A stretch of 64,000 bases of DNA from a virus (taxonomy: Duplodnaviria; Heunggongvirae; Uroviricota; Caudoviricetes). The translations under genes and the position numbers were made by a program. The stretch is taken from IMG/VR virus record IMGVR_UViG_3300029705_000018. One strand, written 5' to 3'. Numbering within the stretch: the first letter of the stretch is position 1; every line of letters begins with the position of its first letter. This document shows, piece by piece, positions 3,236 through 59,421 of this stretch. The notes beneath the pieces are model-generated. The model saw nothing but the letters and a program-made list of their open reading frames with translations. It did not search any database and was not told where the DNA came from.

Positions 3236-3264
3236 ATTATACCAAAAAATATAAAAAAAATCAA
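3236..3264 (-). promoter_or_regulatory. Sigma-70-type promoter (-35 TTGATT, 17-nt spacer, -10 TATAAT) for the operon running from 3201 down to position 1
   Basis: The minus strand reads TTGATTTTTTTTATATTTTTTGGTATAAT. The upstream hairpin 3264..3288 (caagtcgg...ccgacttg) is the terminator of gene 3298..4269. Confidence 0.7.
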
Positions 3265-3297
3265 GTCGGAGCGGATCGCCCCGACTTGACATAAATA

Positions 3298-4269
3298 TTA
3301 CATCAGGTCAGCCTTAATATCGCTAACGATTAGGCTTACAAACTCAGCCTGCTCGGGAGTGGTATCACTTACCTTCTTGCCCTTACCAAGATACTTCTCA
3401 ACAACAGCAGTGATCTTGGGGCCATTGGTAGTGCCCTTGCTCATCAGCTGTCCAACCAGATCCTGGAACTCACCCATCAGAGCCTCATAATTATAAGAAA
3501 CTTCAACGGGAGCAACAATGCGCTCATTGGTTACGAACTGACCAGCAGTTTCGACTGCTTCCTTATCGATAGCTTCATTTAGAGCATCGATCAAGTTCTT
3601 ATAGCTCATAGTAATCTCAACAGGCATATGCTTGAAGCGGCAGCCGCACTCAATAATACCAGAGCCATCACGCAGAGTTAGAACAGACATTTCACCGGCG
3701 GCCTTCTGATGAGCATAACCATAAATGTCAGCCATACCAGCGATAACGGTCTTGGTAGAATTGCTCAACTGAGGACGAATCTTGGTGGTCTTAGTACCAT
3801 CAGGATTATCAATACTCTCCAGCTTTTCGTGTCCGATGAAGAACACAGCATAACCCAGTTGAGTTAGTCCACGGAAGACTTCGTTGAATTCATCCTTGAA
3901 CTTAGTCCAGCCCTTGCCGTAACCCATATCACCCAGGTCTTCGATGCCATTCTGATTGCAGATATACTTTTTACAACGATCAGCGGCAATATCGATAGTA
4001 TCAACGATAACACAGTTATACATTTCCTTGACCTCAGGCATCTTCAACTGACGATAAACCTGCTTCATTTCGGCCCAAGAAGTAATATCCTGTGCCATGA
4101 TACCAGGCAGTGCGTGGTAACCAGGCTCGAAAGCCAGCAATAGAGGCTTATCCATCTGGGCGGCAAGAGTGGTCTTGCCGCACTTAGGAGCGCCATAAAT
4201 ATAAGTAATGTAACCACTTAGGTCACGAGAAACCTTGTGAGGCTTCAAAGCCAATAAATCAATAGCCAT
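3298..4269 (-). CDS. RecA-like AAA ATPase, Sak4/AAA_24-like recombination or replication protein
   Basis: 323 aa with Walker A YGAPKCGKTTLA and a RecA-like core. Confidence 0.5.
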   Translation of the reverse strand: MAIDLLALKPHKVSRDLSGYITYIYGAPKCGKTTLAAQMDKPLLLAFEPGYHALPGIMAQDITSWAEMKQVYRQLKMPEVKEMYNCVIVDTIDIAADRCKKYICNQNGIEDLGDMGYGKGWTKFKDEFNEVFRGLTQLGYAVFFIGHEKLESIDNPDGTKTTKIRPQLSNSTKTVIAGMADIYGYAHQKAAGEMSVLTLRDGSGIIECGCRFKHMPVEITMSYKNLIDALNEAIDKEAVETAGQFVTNERIVAPVEVSYNYEALMGEFQDLVGQLMSKGTTNGPKITAVVEKYLGKGKKVSDTTPEQAEFVSLIVSDIKADLM

Positions 4270-4293
4270 ATTTTATGTCCTCCTCAGATTTGA

Positions 4294-5238
4294 TTAGAAA
4301 TTGAAGCCACCAGCGGCAGGAGCAGCAGCGCCAGCCTTAGGAGCAGCGTTACGGGATGCCTTGTATTCATCCTGACGCTTCTTCATAGCAGCCAAATCAA
4401 CTTCACGCTTCTGGATAGCCTCGTTCAGTTCAGCAACGGTGATAGAACCTTCATCGTCCCAAACATAAGGCTCCTTAGCAGCGCCAGTAATAACGAAGTC
4501 ACGACGAGTGTTCTTTACCTCACGAACTTCATCTTCACCGAAGGCGGATTCAGTACGAATCTGCTTTACAACAGTCTCAGAAACCTGGCGGCCCCAGACA
4601 CAGGTGAAGACAGGATTCTTCTGAGAAGCTTCCAGACCCTCAAAGTATCTCATAGCATTGGGGTTGGTAGCACTGAATTCGATAGGCATCAAATCCTTAC
4701 GGAAGTTGAAGATAGCACCCTTGACAACGCACTTTTCAGGCAAGCTCTTCTCTTCATCAGCGTCAACGTGAGTAACGCAGGTGATAATCATATCAGCCTT
4801 GAAAGTGTTACGGACCTTTTCGTCCTCGTCCAGAGCGTCAACCTTGTGAACGAAACCACCCTCGTTACGCTTTGCAGAAACCAGCTCTTCCTTACCATTA
4901 CGGTCAGTATAGAACTCATTCAAGCCCAGGGCAGAATCAACACGAAGCTTAACAGCCTTATCGGCGCCATCCTTCATATAAGTACCAAAAGTACCATTGA
5001 TGATATTAGAAAGAGTGGTGTAAGTGTCGTTAGGCTTACCAGAACCAAAAGTGGCAGTCACATAAGTGAAGTGAACAGGAACAATGTTGGTCATGGCATC
5101 ATCAGTTGCGATACTGATAGTACCGGTGATGAAGGGAGTGCCAGGATTCTTGGAAGTATCACCAGAAACCTTGGCTTCCAAAGCGTGTTCGTACAATACA
5201 CCCTCGATGTGAGTCTGATTAATCATAGTCTTTTTCAT
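4294..5238 (-). CDS. Hypothetical protein. It may be a ssDNA-binding protein, given its replication-module context.
   Basis: 314 aa with an Ala/Gly-rich C-terminal tail. No diagnostic motif was recognised. Confidence 0.3.
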   Translation of the reverse strand: MKKTMINQTHIEGVLYEHALEAKVSGDTSKNPGTPFITGTISIATDDAMTNIVPVHFTYVTATFGSGKPNDTYTTLSNIINGTFGTYMKDGADKAVKLRVDSALGLNEFYTDRNGKEELVSAKRNEGGFVHKVDALDEDEKVRNTFKADMIITCVTHVDADEEKSLPEKCVVKGAIFNFRKDLMPIEFSATNPNAMRYFEGLEASQKNPVFTCVWGRQVSETVVKQIRTESAFGEDEVREVKNTRRDFVITGAAKEPYVWDDEGSITVAELNEAIQKREVDLAAMKKRQDEYKASRNAAPKAGAAAPAAGGFNF

Positions 5239-57100: not shown

Positions 57101-58340
57101 TAGGAGCAGTCGTTGGATAAGACGCATTATAAGATAAAACTGTGCCAGAAGCATTGGTCCAGCTTACAAAATGCCAACCAGATTTTAAGGGCTGATTCAG
57201 AGTAATGTTTGCTCCTGGAGTTAATGTACCGCCACCAGTAGGAGCATATGTACCAGTCCAATTTTCGCTATTAGCAAGAGTTAAAGTAATTTGATTTAAT
57301 GTCCATTGTGCAACTAGAGTCTCACTTGTGGACGATGGACGATATGAAGCACCAGCAGCATAAGTTGTACCATTTGGAGCTAACCATCCATTAAAAGTAT
57401 AATTTGTTCTAGATGGTGTGGGTAATGTAACTGTTCCAACAGTACCGTTACTTGTAGTGTAATTTGCAGTAACTGTACCAGTTGCGGTAAAAGTTGCTAC
57501 ATTACTTGAATTTATTGTAATACTTGTATTACTAGGAGTCCAACTAGAAAAAGGATATGTGGTAGTTCGAGTTGCTGTCTTAGTTGTTGGAGAGACTGTA
57601 CCACTATTAGGATTAAATGTAACCGTATATGTTGTTGTTGTACTCGCTTTAGTTGGAGTACCTAAAGATTTAGTATTATTTGTATACTTAGTAGTTGCGG
57701 TACCCGCAGTATAATCAGCATAATAATATACATCAGCAGTAGTAGAACGACTTGCACTTGCTGCATAATCGGTAGTACCAGAGGTTAAAGAGCTTGGAGT
57801 GTAAGTGCTTGTTCTTTCATCCCATCCAGAGAAAGTATAAGTAGTACTAGTATATTTTGTACCGCTCTAAGTGACATTGGCACTTCCATTATTATAATTA
57901 ACAGTTAAAGTAATTGTTGAACTATTAGAAGTAATAGTATTAGAACCAGGAGATGCTCTTAGTGTAAAACTAGGAGATGATCTACTAGAATATGTTTGTC
58001 TAGTGTAAGTAGTAGAACCAGAACTTGGATAGTAATAATAAGCCCAAGCAGTACCTGTCCATCCAGCACCTTCAGTTACGTTCTTAACCCAGTCGAAATA
58101 GTTCCATGTACCAGACCAAGTCGCAGAATAACCGAAGCTGCCGTTTTGCCAATATCCGATCCATTCGGGGTTGCTACCTTCAACAGCAGTTGCCCAAACC
58201 CAGTCACCAGTAGAACCAGAATAACGCTAAATGGTACTGTATCCAGTACCAGGACCTGTTCTTTGCCAAGGTTTAGTTGTACCATTAGGAGCATATTCCC
58301 AAATAGAATACCAAGTACCACTATTCCATGATAAGGCCAT
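54159..58340 (-). CDS. Tail fibre or adhesin with tandem beta-sandwich repeats, about 1390 aa. It has three in-frame TAG codons read as Gln.
   Basis: The start is ATG 58338-58340, preceded by AGGAGG. One frame is continuous through track ORFs 54948..57020 and 54159..54740. TAG codons at 58227-58229, 57867-57869 and 54948-54950 are the only stops. Ser/Thr/Asn/Gly-rich repeats such as GVLSAGTHTVYVKYLKDGS and GVLSAGTYTYYIKYRKDASGNY recur. Track ORF 58076..58360 is a spurious frame. Confidence 0.65.
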
Positions 58341-58390
58341 ATTGTTTCCTCCTTTTTCATATTTTTACAAAAAGTAAGAAAAATAAAACT

Positions 58391-59272
58391 TTACCCTTTG
58401 ATGCATTGACTTAATAAAGTTAGACGAACTTGATTTTGATATTCAGGTTTGACTAAATAATAAATATAACTTTCCATAACTTGCGCGATTGGCATAGTGC
58501 GGCCTTCAATCTTAAAATGAGAAAAGCCCATGTCAGTATATTTACCATATAAATCATCAACCTTAATAACAGAAGGGAATTCTAAAATATCATAGAAGCC
58601 TCTGCGGTAAGTGGGGCAACCGCCCGCAAGCTCTCCATCAGTTTCTGGATTCATCATTTCAAAATTAAGTTGATGCTTGGCAATAGTTTCATAATGCTTT
58701 TGTCGTAATTTACAATTAGGATGACAATAAGCATTTATAAGTAATTCAATTTTATCTTTATGTTTAATGCCATCTAGGAAATCAAAATTATAGTTATCTC
58801 TATAATCAATAACTACTAAATCATATTGTTCAGTAGCTTCATTGATTTTACCTAAATCTCTTTCACATCTTGTTGTAGATAAAATATATTTGAAATCTGG
58901 ATAATTTTTTCTTAGATACTCTTCTAATATGGGAGAGTTGATAATTACTTCATTCATTCCATTATTAGCTAATTCCATTGTTAGATTACAATAAGTATCA
59001 TACAAATGCTTTTCTTCTAAGAGAGGATTAGTATAAGTATATCGTAAAGGAATATCAGCATCATTGAGTAAAGCAATTGTTTCTTTCATGCGAGTAGAAG
59101 AAGTCGAACCACACAGTAAGCGACCTCCATTCCAAATTGCTCCTGGAAAAGTTCCATAGATACCACCAAATTCAATTCCTTCGTGGAAATACTCTGGATG
59201 AAAATGATGTAACTGTAACAAAGATAAATTTAAGTGCAATAAAGTATCGAAATCAGGCAAATAAAATTTCAT
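58391..59272 (-). CDS. Hypothetical protein
   Basis: 293 aa. Its promoter is 59309..59337 (TTGATT-N17-TATAAT). Confidence 0.35.
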   Translation of the reverse strand: MKFYLPDFDTLLHLNLSLLQLHHFHPEYFHEGIEFGGIYGTFPGAIWNGGRLLCGSTSSTRMKETIALLNDADIPLRYTYTNPLLEEKHLYDTYCNLTMELANNGMNEVIINSPILEEYLRKNYPDFKYILSTTRCERDLGKINEATEQYDLVVIDYRDNYNFDFLDGIKHKDKIELLINAYCHPNCKLRQKHYETIAKHQLNFEMMNPETDGELAGGCPTYRRGFYDILEFPSVIKVDDLYGKYTDMGFSHFKIEGRTMPIAQVMESYIYYLVKPEYQNQVRLTLLSQCIKG

Positions 59273-59421
59273 TATTTAAGCTCCTTTGTCATTATTCTTT
59301 TTATTACAATTATATCATTTTTTTTCAGTAAAATCAACTCATGAAGGAGAGTAAATAAAAAAATCTCCTTTCTCACTTATTTATTTTCTAAATAATATGA
59401 GAAAGGAGATAAATCAATTAA

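Follow-up and report, generated by a model that had tools for sequence, protein, structure and literature searches.

A family of near-identical promoter-like elements, about half of them fused to terminator-like hairpins, upstream of co-oriented genes in an uncultivated gut phage

What are the short, near-identical repeats that lie between the co-oriented genes of this phage, and what reads them? The window, by which we mean the whole 64,000-nucleotide stretch analysed here, comes from an uncultivated gut phage of ~130–190 kb that is partly TAG-recoded; the recoding, proposed previously, is real and is found in a subset of genes. The sequence-only reading described about 22 near-perfect sigma-70 promoters, and there are indeed 22 exact matches to TTGAYW-N17-TATAAT in the window, all on the minus strand, with 0.21 expected and a maximum of 2 in 100 dinucleotide-preserving shuffles. 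Scores on a 39-nt position matrix are bimodal, with 21 intergenic sites at 24.9–57.1 bits and the next best sequence on either strand at 1.6 bits, and a matrix scan of the window found no motif copies on the plus strand. The remaining match (54858..54886) falls within a large ORF, with GC in its spacer, and fails the 39-nt matrix; we score it as a chance occurrence, and the real promoter-like family therefore has 21 sites, not 22. A copy is present in 20 of the 28 intergenic gaps of at least 45 nt, and the full 29-mer is identical in seven copies. The observation of repeated promoter-like sites is thus confirmed, and the minus-strand orientation and exact 17-nt spacer claimed for them hold in 21/21 copies. 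Seventeen had been given coordinates, which are correct except that P25787 and P36529 were each off by one base, and the four placed only approximately (P8679, P8941, P10984 and P21215) are now located. The sites are as follows.

P3236, 3236..3264, minus strand: 27.2 bits; TTGATT, T-rich spacer, TGGTATAAT; upstream of 2551-3201 and the DnaB-like helicase gene; orthologous copies in L017, L040 and L081.
P5657, 5657..5685, minus strand: no hairpin.
P8679, 8679..8707, minus strand: TTGACA class, preceded by an A-rich tract; the orthologous sites of L068, L027 and L081 have the same variant.
P8941, 8941..8969, minus strand: TTGACA class; abuts the TAA stop of the ligase gene and is predicted to drive a small ORF.
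P10984, 10984..11012, minus strand: TTGACA class; upstream of the NAD-dependent DNA ligase gene, 8970-10958.
P16833, 16833..16861, minus strand: upstream of gyrB, 14892-16787.
P21215, 21215..21243, minus strand: TTGACT class without TG; variant inherited at orthologous sites in L041 and L075.
P24818, 24818..24846, minus strand: consensus 29-mer, 54.8 bits.
P25787, 25787..25815, minus strand: found by motif match and matrix.
P27115, 27115..27143, minus strand: consensus 29-mer; best matrix score, 57.1 bits.
P28564, 28564..28592, minus strand: consensus 29-mer.
P32709, 32709..32737, minus strand: motif match and matrix.
P35795, 35795..35823, minus strand: upstream of a nicotinamidase-like gene.
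P36529, 36529..36557, minus strand: motif match and matrix.
P40412, 40412..40440, minus strand: consensus 29-mer.
P41938, 41938..41966, minus strand: consensus 29-mer; directly upstream of the phage sigma gene.
P46321, 46321..46349, minus strand: consensus 29-mer.
P48296, 48296..48324, minus strand: motif match and matrix.
P51462, 51462..51490, minus strand: consensus 29-mer.
P54075, 54075..54103, minus strand: A8-ATG spacer variant, common to the orthologs in L048 and L079; upstream of an 833-aa vault-protein-like gene.
P59309, 59309..59337, minus strand: 36.2 bits; divergent spacer and start region; weak hairpin (dG -9.3).

The element had been described as two hexamers; these are present, but the conserved block is really about 40 nt, extending from the -35 to about +4 with no conservation upstream of the -35, and the spacer, discriminator and start region are nearly invariant across the window copies. 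An extended -10 was said to occur often, and TG is found at -15/-14 (TGnTATAAT) in 18/21 sites, as exactly TGATATAAT in 11/21, with TATG (TRTG) in 12/21. A listed start codon follows the -10 by 22–67 nt in 18 of the 21 copies, the other three preceding small or recoded ORFs, and Shine-Dalgarno cores are found before 74% of starts, against a background of 10%. At P5657 the overlap with the upstream gene is as previously noted, the TGA stop of the DHFR ORF (5682..6173) forming bases 2–4 of the TTGATT in the -35 (5685..5680). The elements described for Firmicutes promoters include a TRTG (also reported in PMC6570832), an AT-rich discriminator, a YRY start element and an AG-rich initial transcribed region (PMC12641261), and each conserved block matches a described element. 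The sites are thus of sigma-70/sigma-A type in every sequence feature, co-oriented with the genes and just upstream of them, as first proposed.

The earlier argument for a Firmicutes rather than a Bacteroidetes host also stands, and does so on separate grounds. The TRTG extended -10, the frequency of Shine-Dalgarno cores, the SigA-like sigma factor described below and the MAG bins, of which 11 of the 15 that hold the motif are Bacillota, all point that way, and a Firmicutes (Bacillota) host is supported. The promoter consensus had been matched to sigma-A of low-GC Gram-positive bacteria, but a second candidate reader was missed.

SigA-like sigma factor gene, 40994..41899, minus strand: 301 aa, with regions 1.2, 2, 3 and 4 and no region 1.1.

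Because the phage encodes this protein, host sigma-A is not the sole candidate reader. The phage sigma is closest to Firmicutes SigA, with regions 2.4 and 4.2 nearly identical; the -35/-10 recognition residues Q437, R441, E585, R588 and Q589 are unchanged in the phage sigmas, which differ from SigA at contact positions by W433Y, by H455N (or changes at E458), and by K or R at 584. As the residues with which it reads DNA hardly differ from SigA's, the phage sigma probably recognises the same sites. Its gene lies directly behind P41938, and only TTGATT units lie upstream of it in the window.

Most of the promoters were reported to be fused to a terminator, with hairpins in at least 12 cases, which is slightly overstated: strong hairpins (dG -14 to -25 kcal/mol) are present at 11/21 sites, 10/21 copies are without one, and a twelfth, at 59309, is weak (-9.3). 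The fusion itself is well founded for about half of the copies, where an intrinsic-terminator-like hairpin lies upstream and its T-run merges into the -35. Nine of the 11 strong hairpins end -4 to +2 nt from the first T of the -35, and the other two end 9 and 15 nt upstream; since the hairpin ends at the -35, the U-tract at the fused sites is TTTT-TTGATTTTT, with the T-run spanning the -35.

Hairpin of P3236, 3260..3290, minus strand: 14 bp, dG -21.5; 3' arm includes TTGA of the -35.
Hairpin of P25787, 25825..25852, minus strand: 11 bp, dG -20.6; ends 9 nt before the -35.
Hairpin of P28564, 28594..28618, minus strand: 11 bp, dG -18.7; ends 1 nt before the -35, GGGGTCTTTTTGATTTTT.
Hairpin of P32709, 32738..32767, minus strand: 13 bp, dG -20.1; abuts the -35.
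Hairpin of P35795, 35822..35854, minus strand: 14 bp, dG -20.9; overlaps the -35 by 2 nt.
Hairpin of P36529, 36558..36582, minus strand: 9 bp, dG -14.0; abuts the -35.
Hairpin of P41938, 41967..41995, minus strand: 12 bp, dG -19.5; abuts the -35.
Hairpin of P46321, 46348..46382, minus strand: 16 bp, dG -24.8; overlaps the -35 by 2 nt.
Hairpin of P48296, 48327..48349, minus strand: 9 bp, dG -17.6; followed by TTTTTTGATTTT.
Hairpin of P51462, 51493..51516, minus strand: 10 bp, dG -16.7; ends 2 nt before the -35.
Hairpin of P54075, 54119..54146, minus strand: 12 bp, dG -17.4; ends 15 nt before the -35.

Among 287 unique copies from the window and its relatives, stem ends likewise cluster at -4 to +2 from the -35, and hairpins accompany 100/225 TTGATT copies but only 6/41 TTGAC[AT] copies (odds ratio 4.7, p = 1.7e-4). 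What is conserved is the structure: a hairpin is retained at 16/19 orthologous sites, with stems of unrelated sequence (38% identity). That of P3236 is kept with different stems at five orthologous sites, P32709 has three different stems at its orthologous sites and P54075 four, the last with the same 10-15 nt offset, and the ortholog of P16833 in L084 has a hairpin of -22.6 kcal/mol.

At least 85 viral contig stretches contain the exact 31-mer, and their coding DNA is only 65–80% identical to the window. Motif copies occupy orthologous positions in relatives, with variants inherited position by position, and sigma-centred loci of low-GC large phage contigs, which were chosen without selection on the motif, contain 3–12 co-oriented sites per 10 kb. 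The motif is common to a whole clade of large phages. Distant lineages show two recurring classes, TTGACA with TG and an A-rich upstream tract, and TTGATT without TG. We also note that TTGATT, not TTGACA, predominates among very diverged phages, an observation that would accommodate a phage-specific reader.

Gene-content differences between relatives adjoin motif copies. A copy is present at 17/25 variable junctions and 13/41 conserved adjacencies, and the p value of 0.004 is confounded in that larger gaps hold more motifs, the loci are motif-seeded, and related loci are not independent. The gene at 35856–36506 is flanked by P35795 and P36529, and L082, which lacks it, has one copy at that place; two copies also flank the ligase module, and in L068 and L084, where the module is absent, two copies lie next to each other. 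DHFR and ThyA are absent at the P5657 junction in seven related loci, and P25787 and P27115 bound a module that is missing from six. In three different arrangements homology stops exactly at the edge of the -35, and at P40412 homology with three relatives ends exactly at the 5′ edge of the -35, although this is equally expected if a promoter simply travels with its downstream gene. Endonuclease-like genes are found at variable junctions (a GIY-YIG gene at 7321–8307 and DUF2726-like paralogs at 44439–45176 and 47485–48279), and these, possibly of the homing type, could be the cause of some of the indels.

We consider it probable that these 21 sites serve early and middle genes as composite cassettes of terminator and promoter, that host sigma-A fires them and that they are also recombination junctions; 'cassette' in the sense of promoter plus hairpin describes only half of the 21 copies. 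Each has in its sequence a complete Gram-positive sigma-A-type promoter, with a TTGATT or TTGACA -35, a perfect TATAAT, and a spacer of exactly 17 nt, AT-rich and ending in a TRTG/TGn extended -10. The discriminator that follows is AT-rich, a predicted Y-R-Y start site comes 7 nt after the -10, and the short purine-rich leader has a Shine-Dalgarno sequence. In about half, the intrinsic terminator of the upstream unit would be packed against the promoter, its U-tract spanning the -35, such that 56 kb of co-oriented genes, for replication, nucleotides, NAD salvage and host takeover, would be cut into ~20 short units, separately started and stopped. Host sigma-A holoenzyme would have to fire at least the first round, because the phage sigma gene itself sits behind one motif copy, with the phage sigma probably reading the same promoters later. 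Since the cassettes form near-identical 40–60-bp islands between diverged genes, they could also serve as junctions for gain, loss and swapping of modules between related phages. We infer promoter and terminator activity, timing, the sigma used and a recombination mechanism at the motif from these features; conservation of the spacer exceeds the known requirements of sigma-A and counts against this reading.

An alternative that we regard as unlikely is that the TTGATT copies are cognate promoters of the phage SigA-like sigma, forming a middle-gene class or a self-amplifying circuit, and that only the TTGACA/T copies are true early promoters of host sigma-A. A full sigma (regions 1.2–4) is encoded, sigma-encoding large phage contigs consistently contain dense TTGATT arrays whereas host-like SigA loci have 0–1, there are two recurring promoter classes and several contact-position differences, and the whole 40 nt is conserved rather than the hexamers alone. 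However, the sigma gene lies behind a TTGATT copy, and the host enzyme must then read this class unless the sigma is injected; moreover, the five recognition residues are unchanged, the choice of K or R at 584 is not correlated with the -35 type (L020, with R, still uses TTGATT), region 3.0 changes track TG poorly (TG is retained in HMID lineages and lost in HIND lineages), and the sigma-A promoter elements of Firmicutes already account for every conserved block.

It is more doubtful still that the T5-AT-A7 palindrome is an operator for a dimeric phage regulator, laid over an ordinary promoter, through which ~20 units would be switched off or on together. The near-invariant T5-AT-A7 spacer does contain TTTTTATAAAAA, a perfect, spacer-centred 12-bp palindrome, within the 29-mer identical in seven window copies, and diverged phages share the exact 31-mer. 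Phages also commonly shut off their early promoters in a coordinated way. Yet P25787 and P32709 have a longer palindrome (T6-AT-A6), whose centre lies about half a base away from its usual place with respect to the hexamers, the spacer in relatives is conserved in composition only (a T-run, then an A-tract) and not sequence-specifically, AT-tracts adjoining the -35 are a described general promoter feature (PMC12641261), and no candidate regulator was identified. That the repeats are mobile or structural DNA (MITE-like, a recombination/packaging site, or a replication iteron), promoter-like by resemblance in AT-rich DNA, would suit dispersed near-identical short repeats tied to rearrangement junctions but is highly improbable: all copies are intergenic, on the coding strand and at a fixed 22–67 nt from a Shine-Dalgarno sequence and start codon, conservation peaks on the -35, TG, -10 and start site with 17-nt spacing in 21/21, terminal inverted repeats and target duplications are absent from the copies, orthologous positions with inherited variants misfit recent transposition, and the other strand is without copies.

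The putative terminator/promoter cassettes resemble most closely the PeSLs (promoter-early stem-loops) of the T4-type phages RB49/phi1, PST/T4 and nt-1/KVP40 (Arbiol et al. 2010, PMC2839356; Comeau et al. 2014, PMC4122927), themselves proposed as junctions for module gain, loss or swap, a precedent that the sequence-only reading had missed. Both are dispersed families of conserved intergenic cassettes, concentrated among non-structural and accessory genes, in which a stem-loop terminator lies beside a sigma-70-type N17 promoter followed by a Shine-Dalgarno sequence and start codon, and in both, the genes bordered by copies may be present, missing or replaced from one relative to another, with the same topology of two copies around a gene versus one copy without it. 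They differ in that this partly TAG-recoded phage has Firmicutes features and is not one of the T4-like phages, which infect Gram-negatives, that the promoter has Gram-positive features (TRTG, purine-rich leader), and that the phage also encodes a SigA-like sigma. The hairpin sequences here are not conserved between copies, and the hairpin is in a fixed register, ending at the -35 with U-tract and -35 sharing bases, whereas the RB49 stem-loop is mostly between or over the promoter boxes (PMC2839356). Promoter and terminator function of PeSLs has been demonstrated experimentally (PMC2839356); for the present cassettes both functions are predicted from sequence.

There are also similarities to the strong early promoters of virulent phages that rely on the host RNA polymerase (T4 early, T5 and SPO1 early classes), in which early genes lie in one orientation behind many near-consensus sigma-70/sigma-A promoters with AT-rich flanks. 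A phage sigma or sigma-like factor is likewise encoded among those genes (SPO1 gp28 is mentioned in PMC9429907); however, copy-to-copy identity is higher here, terminators overlap promoters, and the sigma is a close SigA look-alike, not one that has diverged strongly and gained a new promoter specificity. Morons of lambdoid phages, in which a gene has its own promoter and terminator (PMC2839356), are similarly autonomous promoter-gene-terminator units between conserved genes, but they have no shared conserved flank, whereas here a single repeated motif forms the flanks and the units run in the same direction as the genes around them.

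The window contains 22 matches to TTGAYW-N17-TATAAT, always on the minus strand, which is also the strand of every predicted gene; 0.21 occurrences are expected, and the maximum among dinucleotide-preserving shuffles is two. The set of about 22 promoters described in the sequence-only reading is thus a real and highly non-random pattern, and all of the coordinates given there are correct within one base. From the intergenic copies we derived a position matrix of 39 nt; scored on both strands, it places 21 sites at 24.9–57.1 bits and the best other position on either strand at 1.6 bits, and the motif family is therefore discrete. 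The remaining pattern match, at 54858, lies inside a large ORF and is a chance match by the matrix, and we do not count it as a member. Intergenic gaps measuring 45 nt or longer number 28, and copies (named here by P and their start coordinate) are present in 20 of them; for 18 of the 21 copies a listed start codon comes 22–67 nt downstream of the -10, with the other three preceding small or recoded ORFs. The eight motif-free gaps, most of which hold small ORFs, were searched for a second promoter class and showed no recurrent alternative motif.

Products encoded in the units behind the putative promoters
Minus strand: replication proteins (DnaB-like helicase, AAA_24 ATPase, NAD-dependent ligase, GyrA and GyrB)
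Minus strand: nucleotide metabolism (DHFR and ThyA)
Minus strand: NAD-salvage and ADP-ribose products (NAMPT, NadE, Sir2, macro, NADAR, nicotinamidase and PRTase)
Minus strand: PhoH, SPFH proteins and several phosphoesterases
Minus strand: RNA-repair enzymes, lipoproteins and a vault-protein-like 833-aa protein
40994–41899, minus strand: a full sigma factor (the phage sigma), 301 aa, with regions 1.2, 2, 3 and 4 and without region 1.1

All 21 copies have a perfect TATAAT spaced by exactly 17 nt from a -35 that is TTGATT in 17 instances, TTGACA in three and TTGACT in one; the TTGACA/T subclass, with a different spacer, comprises the copies at 8679, 8941, 10984 and 21215. The extended -10 is present as TGn (TG at -15/-14) in 18 copies and as TATGn in 12, and the start region carries a conserved ATATAT-R-Y-AA block with a purine about 7 nt past the -10 and, beyond it, a leader that contains a Shine-Dalgarno (SD) sequence and leads to the start codon. 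Conservation therefore spans a block of about 40 nt rather than two hexamers (consensus TTGATTTTT.tAAAAAAATATGaTATAAT-ATATAT-R-Y-AA), an identical 29-mer being common to seven copies, and among the window copies no sequence is conserved upstream of the -35. A scan of the window for tRNAs and against Rfam found nothing, so the conserved leader is not a known RNA family. Published Firmicutes sigma-A elements include the extended -10 in its TRTG form, a discriminator rich in AT, a Y-R-Y element with the purine start site at its centre, and an initial transcribed region rich in AG (PMC12641261), and each conserved block of the motif has a counterpart among them. At the level of sequence, the 21 copies conform to Firmicutes-type sigma-A promoters.

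A strong hairpin (dG -14 to -25 kcal/mol), with the GC-rich stem, short loop and U-tract of a predicted intrinsic terminator, accompanies 11 of the 21 copies; the other ten lack a convincing hairpin and are promoter-only. The fusion to predicted terminators noted earlier is present, although 'most' and 'at least 12' were slight overstatements. For nine of these 11, the end of the stem falls at -4 to +2 nt relative to the first T of the -35, and the T-run that follows it consequently reads literally TTTT-TTGATTTTT, the U-tract being broken by the GA of TTGA; in the other two the stem ends 9 and 15 nt upstream. The DHFR stop codon does lie inside a -35, as had been remarked, its TGA forming bases 2–4 of that element in P5657. 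Stem ends cluster at the same -4 to +2 positions in a survey of 287 unique copies from the window and its relatives, where hairpins accompany 100 of 225 TTGATT copies and six of 41 TTGAC[AT] copies (odds ratio 4.7, p = 1.7e-4). This bias fits a T-rich -35 variant that would double as a U-tract, and the fixed overlap offers a simple explanation for the dominance of TTGATT over TTGACA. At sites in relatives that are orthologous to the window hairpins a hairpin is kept in the same register in 16 of 19 cases, with stems of unrelated sequence (ungapped identity 38%, no different from sites that lack a hairpin), so that it is structure and not sequence that is conserved. The clustering of stem ends, the TTGATT association and this structural conservation argue that the hairpins are functional, and the interpretation of the copies as putative promoters and terminators is well supported by sequence and by comparison with relatives.

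The exact 31-mer of the motif is found in at least 85 stretches of IMG/VR contigs of up to 402 kb, from many samples; the coding DNA of these stretches matches that of the window at only 65–80% identity. Copies occur at orthologous positions in these relatives, next to proteins of 40–85% identity, and the features peculiar to the variant copies P21215, P8679 and P54075 are retained where diverged relatives have the orthologous sites, which indicates individually maintained sites rather than recent copies. Concerted evolution is therefore rejected as the sole cause of the identity among copies. In copies outside the search seed the spacer is conserved in composition (a T-run, an A-tract and TATG) and not in exact sequence. 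Loci centred on sigma homologues, and thus chosen independently of the motif, have 3–12 co-oriented sites per 10 kb, mostly TTGATT, where they lie on low-GC large phage contigs, and 0–1 sites where they are high-GC and host-like. A sigma is present on at least nine of about 19 large motif contigs, the alignment-based search covering 80 of 396 matches; a single-protein locus search for co-occurrence of sigma and motif returned one locus. Among deposited phages, megablast with 20 kb of the window as query has no match, and tblastn of the phage sigma against deposited sequences gave nothing above 50% identity; there is accordingly no cultured relative to draw on.

In more distant lineages the sites fall clearly into two classes: those with TTGACA have TG and an upstream tract rich in A, and those with TTGATT lack TG. 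In three distant sigma-encoding phages (L110, L126 and L128) the classes are sharply distinct and partly on opposite strands, the first consisting of an A-rich tract, TTGACA, TGnTATAAT and TATAATGTAATAAGA, and the second of TTGATT, ...ATATTATATAAT (no TG) and ATATATGTAATAAATA; the start region ATGTAA is common to these and the window's motif. We note also that two of the sigma loci (L132 and L135) are on one 402-kb contig, IMGVR_UViG_3300032167_000002, which carries two different sigmas about 198 kb apart, 75% and 72% identical to that of the window; rather than one genome, this contig is probably two related phages joined in assembly, as a concatenate or a chimera.

The presence of a SigA-like sigma beside the motif raises the question of why a phage should carry a near-copy of the host housekeeping factor. 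Its nearest structures are the Firmicutes SigA proteins of S. aureus, B. subtilis and C. difficile (E ~1e-77), and its score is under the NCBIfam RpoD cut-off. By our own mapping of the alignment to E. coli numbering, the residues that read the -10 and -35 (Q437, R441, E585, R588 and Q589) are unchanged, and the differences from SigA are W433Y, T440S, H455N and R584K. The lysine at 584 is not the cause of the T at -31 in TTGATT, since two related loci with arginine there (L020 and L074) use TTGATT too. Sigma region 3.0 differs between lineages, and TG does not follow it neatly: among only about six lineages, those that keep a glutamate there retain TG and two of three in which it is replaced lose TG in the TTGATT class, with the HMID lineages, which retain TG, as a counter-example. 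A promoter class specific to the phage sigma, like those of SPO1 gp28 and T4 gp55, is an unlikely description of the motif, because the hexamers are the host consensus, the reading residues are unchanged, and the K/R584 polymorphism does not co-vary. A TTGATT copy stands immediately before the sigma gene and the units upstream of the gene have TTGATT only, so this class must, at first at any rate, be read by the host enzyme. It is simplest to suppose that the host and phage sigmas would read the same promoters.

The proposal that the host is a Firmicute and not a member of the Bacteroidetes is likewise supported, and independently of CRISPR spacers. TRTG is reported to be common in Firmicutes (PMC6570832, PMC12641261), and Bacteroides is an outlier without canonical -35 and -10 elements in a survey of promoters (PMC12641261). 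SD cores precede 74% of starts, compared to 10% in the background; the window encodes a DUF5067 lipoprotein; and 11 of 15 motif-bearing MAG bins are Bacillota, although binning is weak evidence. Together with the TRTG element and the Firmicutes-SigA-like sigma, these favour a Firmicutes host and disfavour a Bacteroidetes one.

Comparison of the window with its relatives places the motif at 17 of 25 junctions that vary in gene content or length and at 13 of 41 conserved adjacencies (p = 0.004, one-sided Fisher), a difference confounded by gap size, motif seeding and the non-independence of loci. Single cases give a clearer picture. Four genomes share homology at P40412 downstream from the first T of the -35 and have three unrelated arrangements immediately upstream, one of which includes an inverted diversity-generating (DGR) module, in a relative (L063) with two adjacent proteins at 97–98% identity to those of the window. 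In the window two copies border the gene at 35856–36506, where a related locus (L082) has one copy between the same neighbours; the ligase gene also has two flanking copies and is absent from two loci (L068 and L084), and DHFR and ThyA are absent at P5657 in seven. An alternative cause of the gene-content changes at some junctions is provided by genes that may be mobile and homing-endonuclease-like: two paralogous Zn-ribbon proteins with a weak DUF2726 (nuclease-like) match at 44439-45176 and 47485-48279, and a GIY-YIG protein at 7321-8307. Several copies of the DUF2726-like paralogs are seen at variable junctions in five related loci (L002, L031, L032, L064 and L079).

The closest described system is the promoter-early stem-loops (PeSLs) of T4-type phages, repeated cassettes in which a sigma-70-type N17 promoter adjoins a stem-loop terminator and is accompanied by an SD and a start codon; they are concentrated in plastic regions and at the junctions of indels or swaps, and their promoter and terminator activities have been shown in reporters (PMC2839356, PMC4122927). 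The same combination of promoter, stem-loop, SD and start codon is complete in 11 of the 21 window copies; copies of the motif similarly coincide with insertions, deletions and replacements between relatives, and the topology of two copies flanking a gene versus one copy is also alike. Unlike PeSLs, the element is in another phage lineage and host type, has Gram-positive promoter features and a fixed overlap of hairpin and -35, and is accompanied by a SigA-like phage sigma. PeSLs were originally described in T4-like myoviruses, and the window holds no structural or T4-core genes. A survey of stop-codon recoding in gut phages does not mention promoters. We suggest that the element is best filed as a putative member of the PeSL kind, in a Firmicutes phage clade with its own housekeeping-type sigma. 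This extends the idea of regulatory cassettes as recombination sockets from T4-like Gram-negative phages to an unrelated Gram-positive group and suggests that the design is a convergent, general solution; it also gives a sequence-defined map of about 20 predicted transcription units in a clade of large, recoded gut phages without cultivated members. As an engineering part for Clostridia or Bacilli, the compact insulator-promoter of 60–70 bp could be of use.

The earlier remark on TAG recoding holds for a subset of ORFs: in-frame TAG is limited to the DGR reverse transcriptase (11), the endolysin, the GIY-YIG protein, an endonuclease-like protein and a 1401-aa protein, and the promoter-driven genes are mostly TAG-free. 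A tRNA gene, and hence a suppressor tRNA, is absent from positions 1-64000 despite the recoding, so the suppressor must sit elsewhere in the genome. A doubtful scheme is that the uniform 40-nt TTGATT promoter and the region-1.1-less sigma form a semi-autonomous circuit. Host sigma-A would fire the first round, the sigma gene included, and the phage sigma would then capture core polymerase and sustain some 20 identical promoters when host sigma-A is inhibited, degraded or scarce, for instance in Clostridia that are stationary or sporulating. Late functions would meanwhile be held silent by the fused terminators and by TAG recoding of late genes, and the cassettes would be the clade's standard plug-in sockets for accessory-gene exchange.

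Several other features deserve mention. Within 17500-19225, the endolysin (lysozyme, M15 peptidase, PG-binding and SH3 domains) has two in-frame TAGs, and its start codon is only about 25 nt past a strong predicted terminator at 19196-19225, which leaves no room for a promoter; its expression would need both terminator read-through and TAG suppression. A contiguous NAD+ salvage and ADP-ribose cluster at 27389-35769, cut into three units by promoter cassettes, encodes an NMNAT-like protein, NADAR, NAD synthase, a macro domain, NAMPT, Sir2, YqeY, a phosphoribosyltransferase and a nicotinamidase; as a whole it resembles a set with which a phage would counter defence by reconstituting NAD+. The 833-aa protein at 51528-54029 has Major Vault Protein shoulder and vault-repeat domains, unusual in a phage, is 65–85% conserved in relatives, and has a cassette on either side. 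An RNA-repair-like set consists of an RNA ligase, a Thg1-like tRNA-His guanylyltransferase and an RlaP-like nucleotidyltransferase (37710-39173, 43643-44425 and 48635-49519). Finally, the DGR at 59750-63913 has its RVT_1 reverse transcriptase at 61495-62679, in a region of 30% GC and flanked by two paralogous target-like genes (60021-61235 and 63029-63913), and contains two related non-coding segments of about 300 nt with the common hairpin TTTATAACTCTCTTTGAGAGTTTTATATAT.
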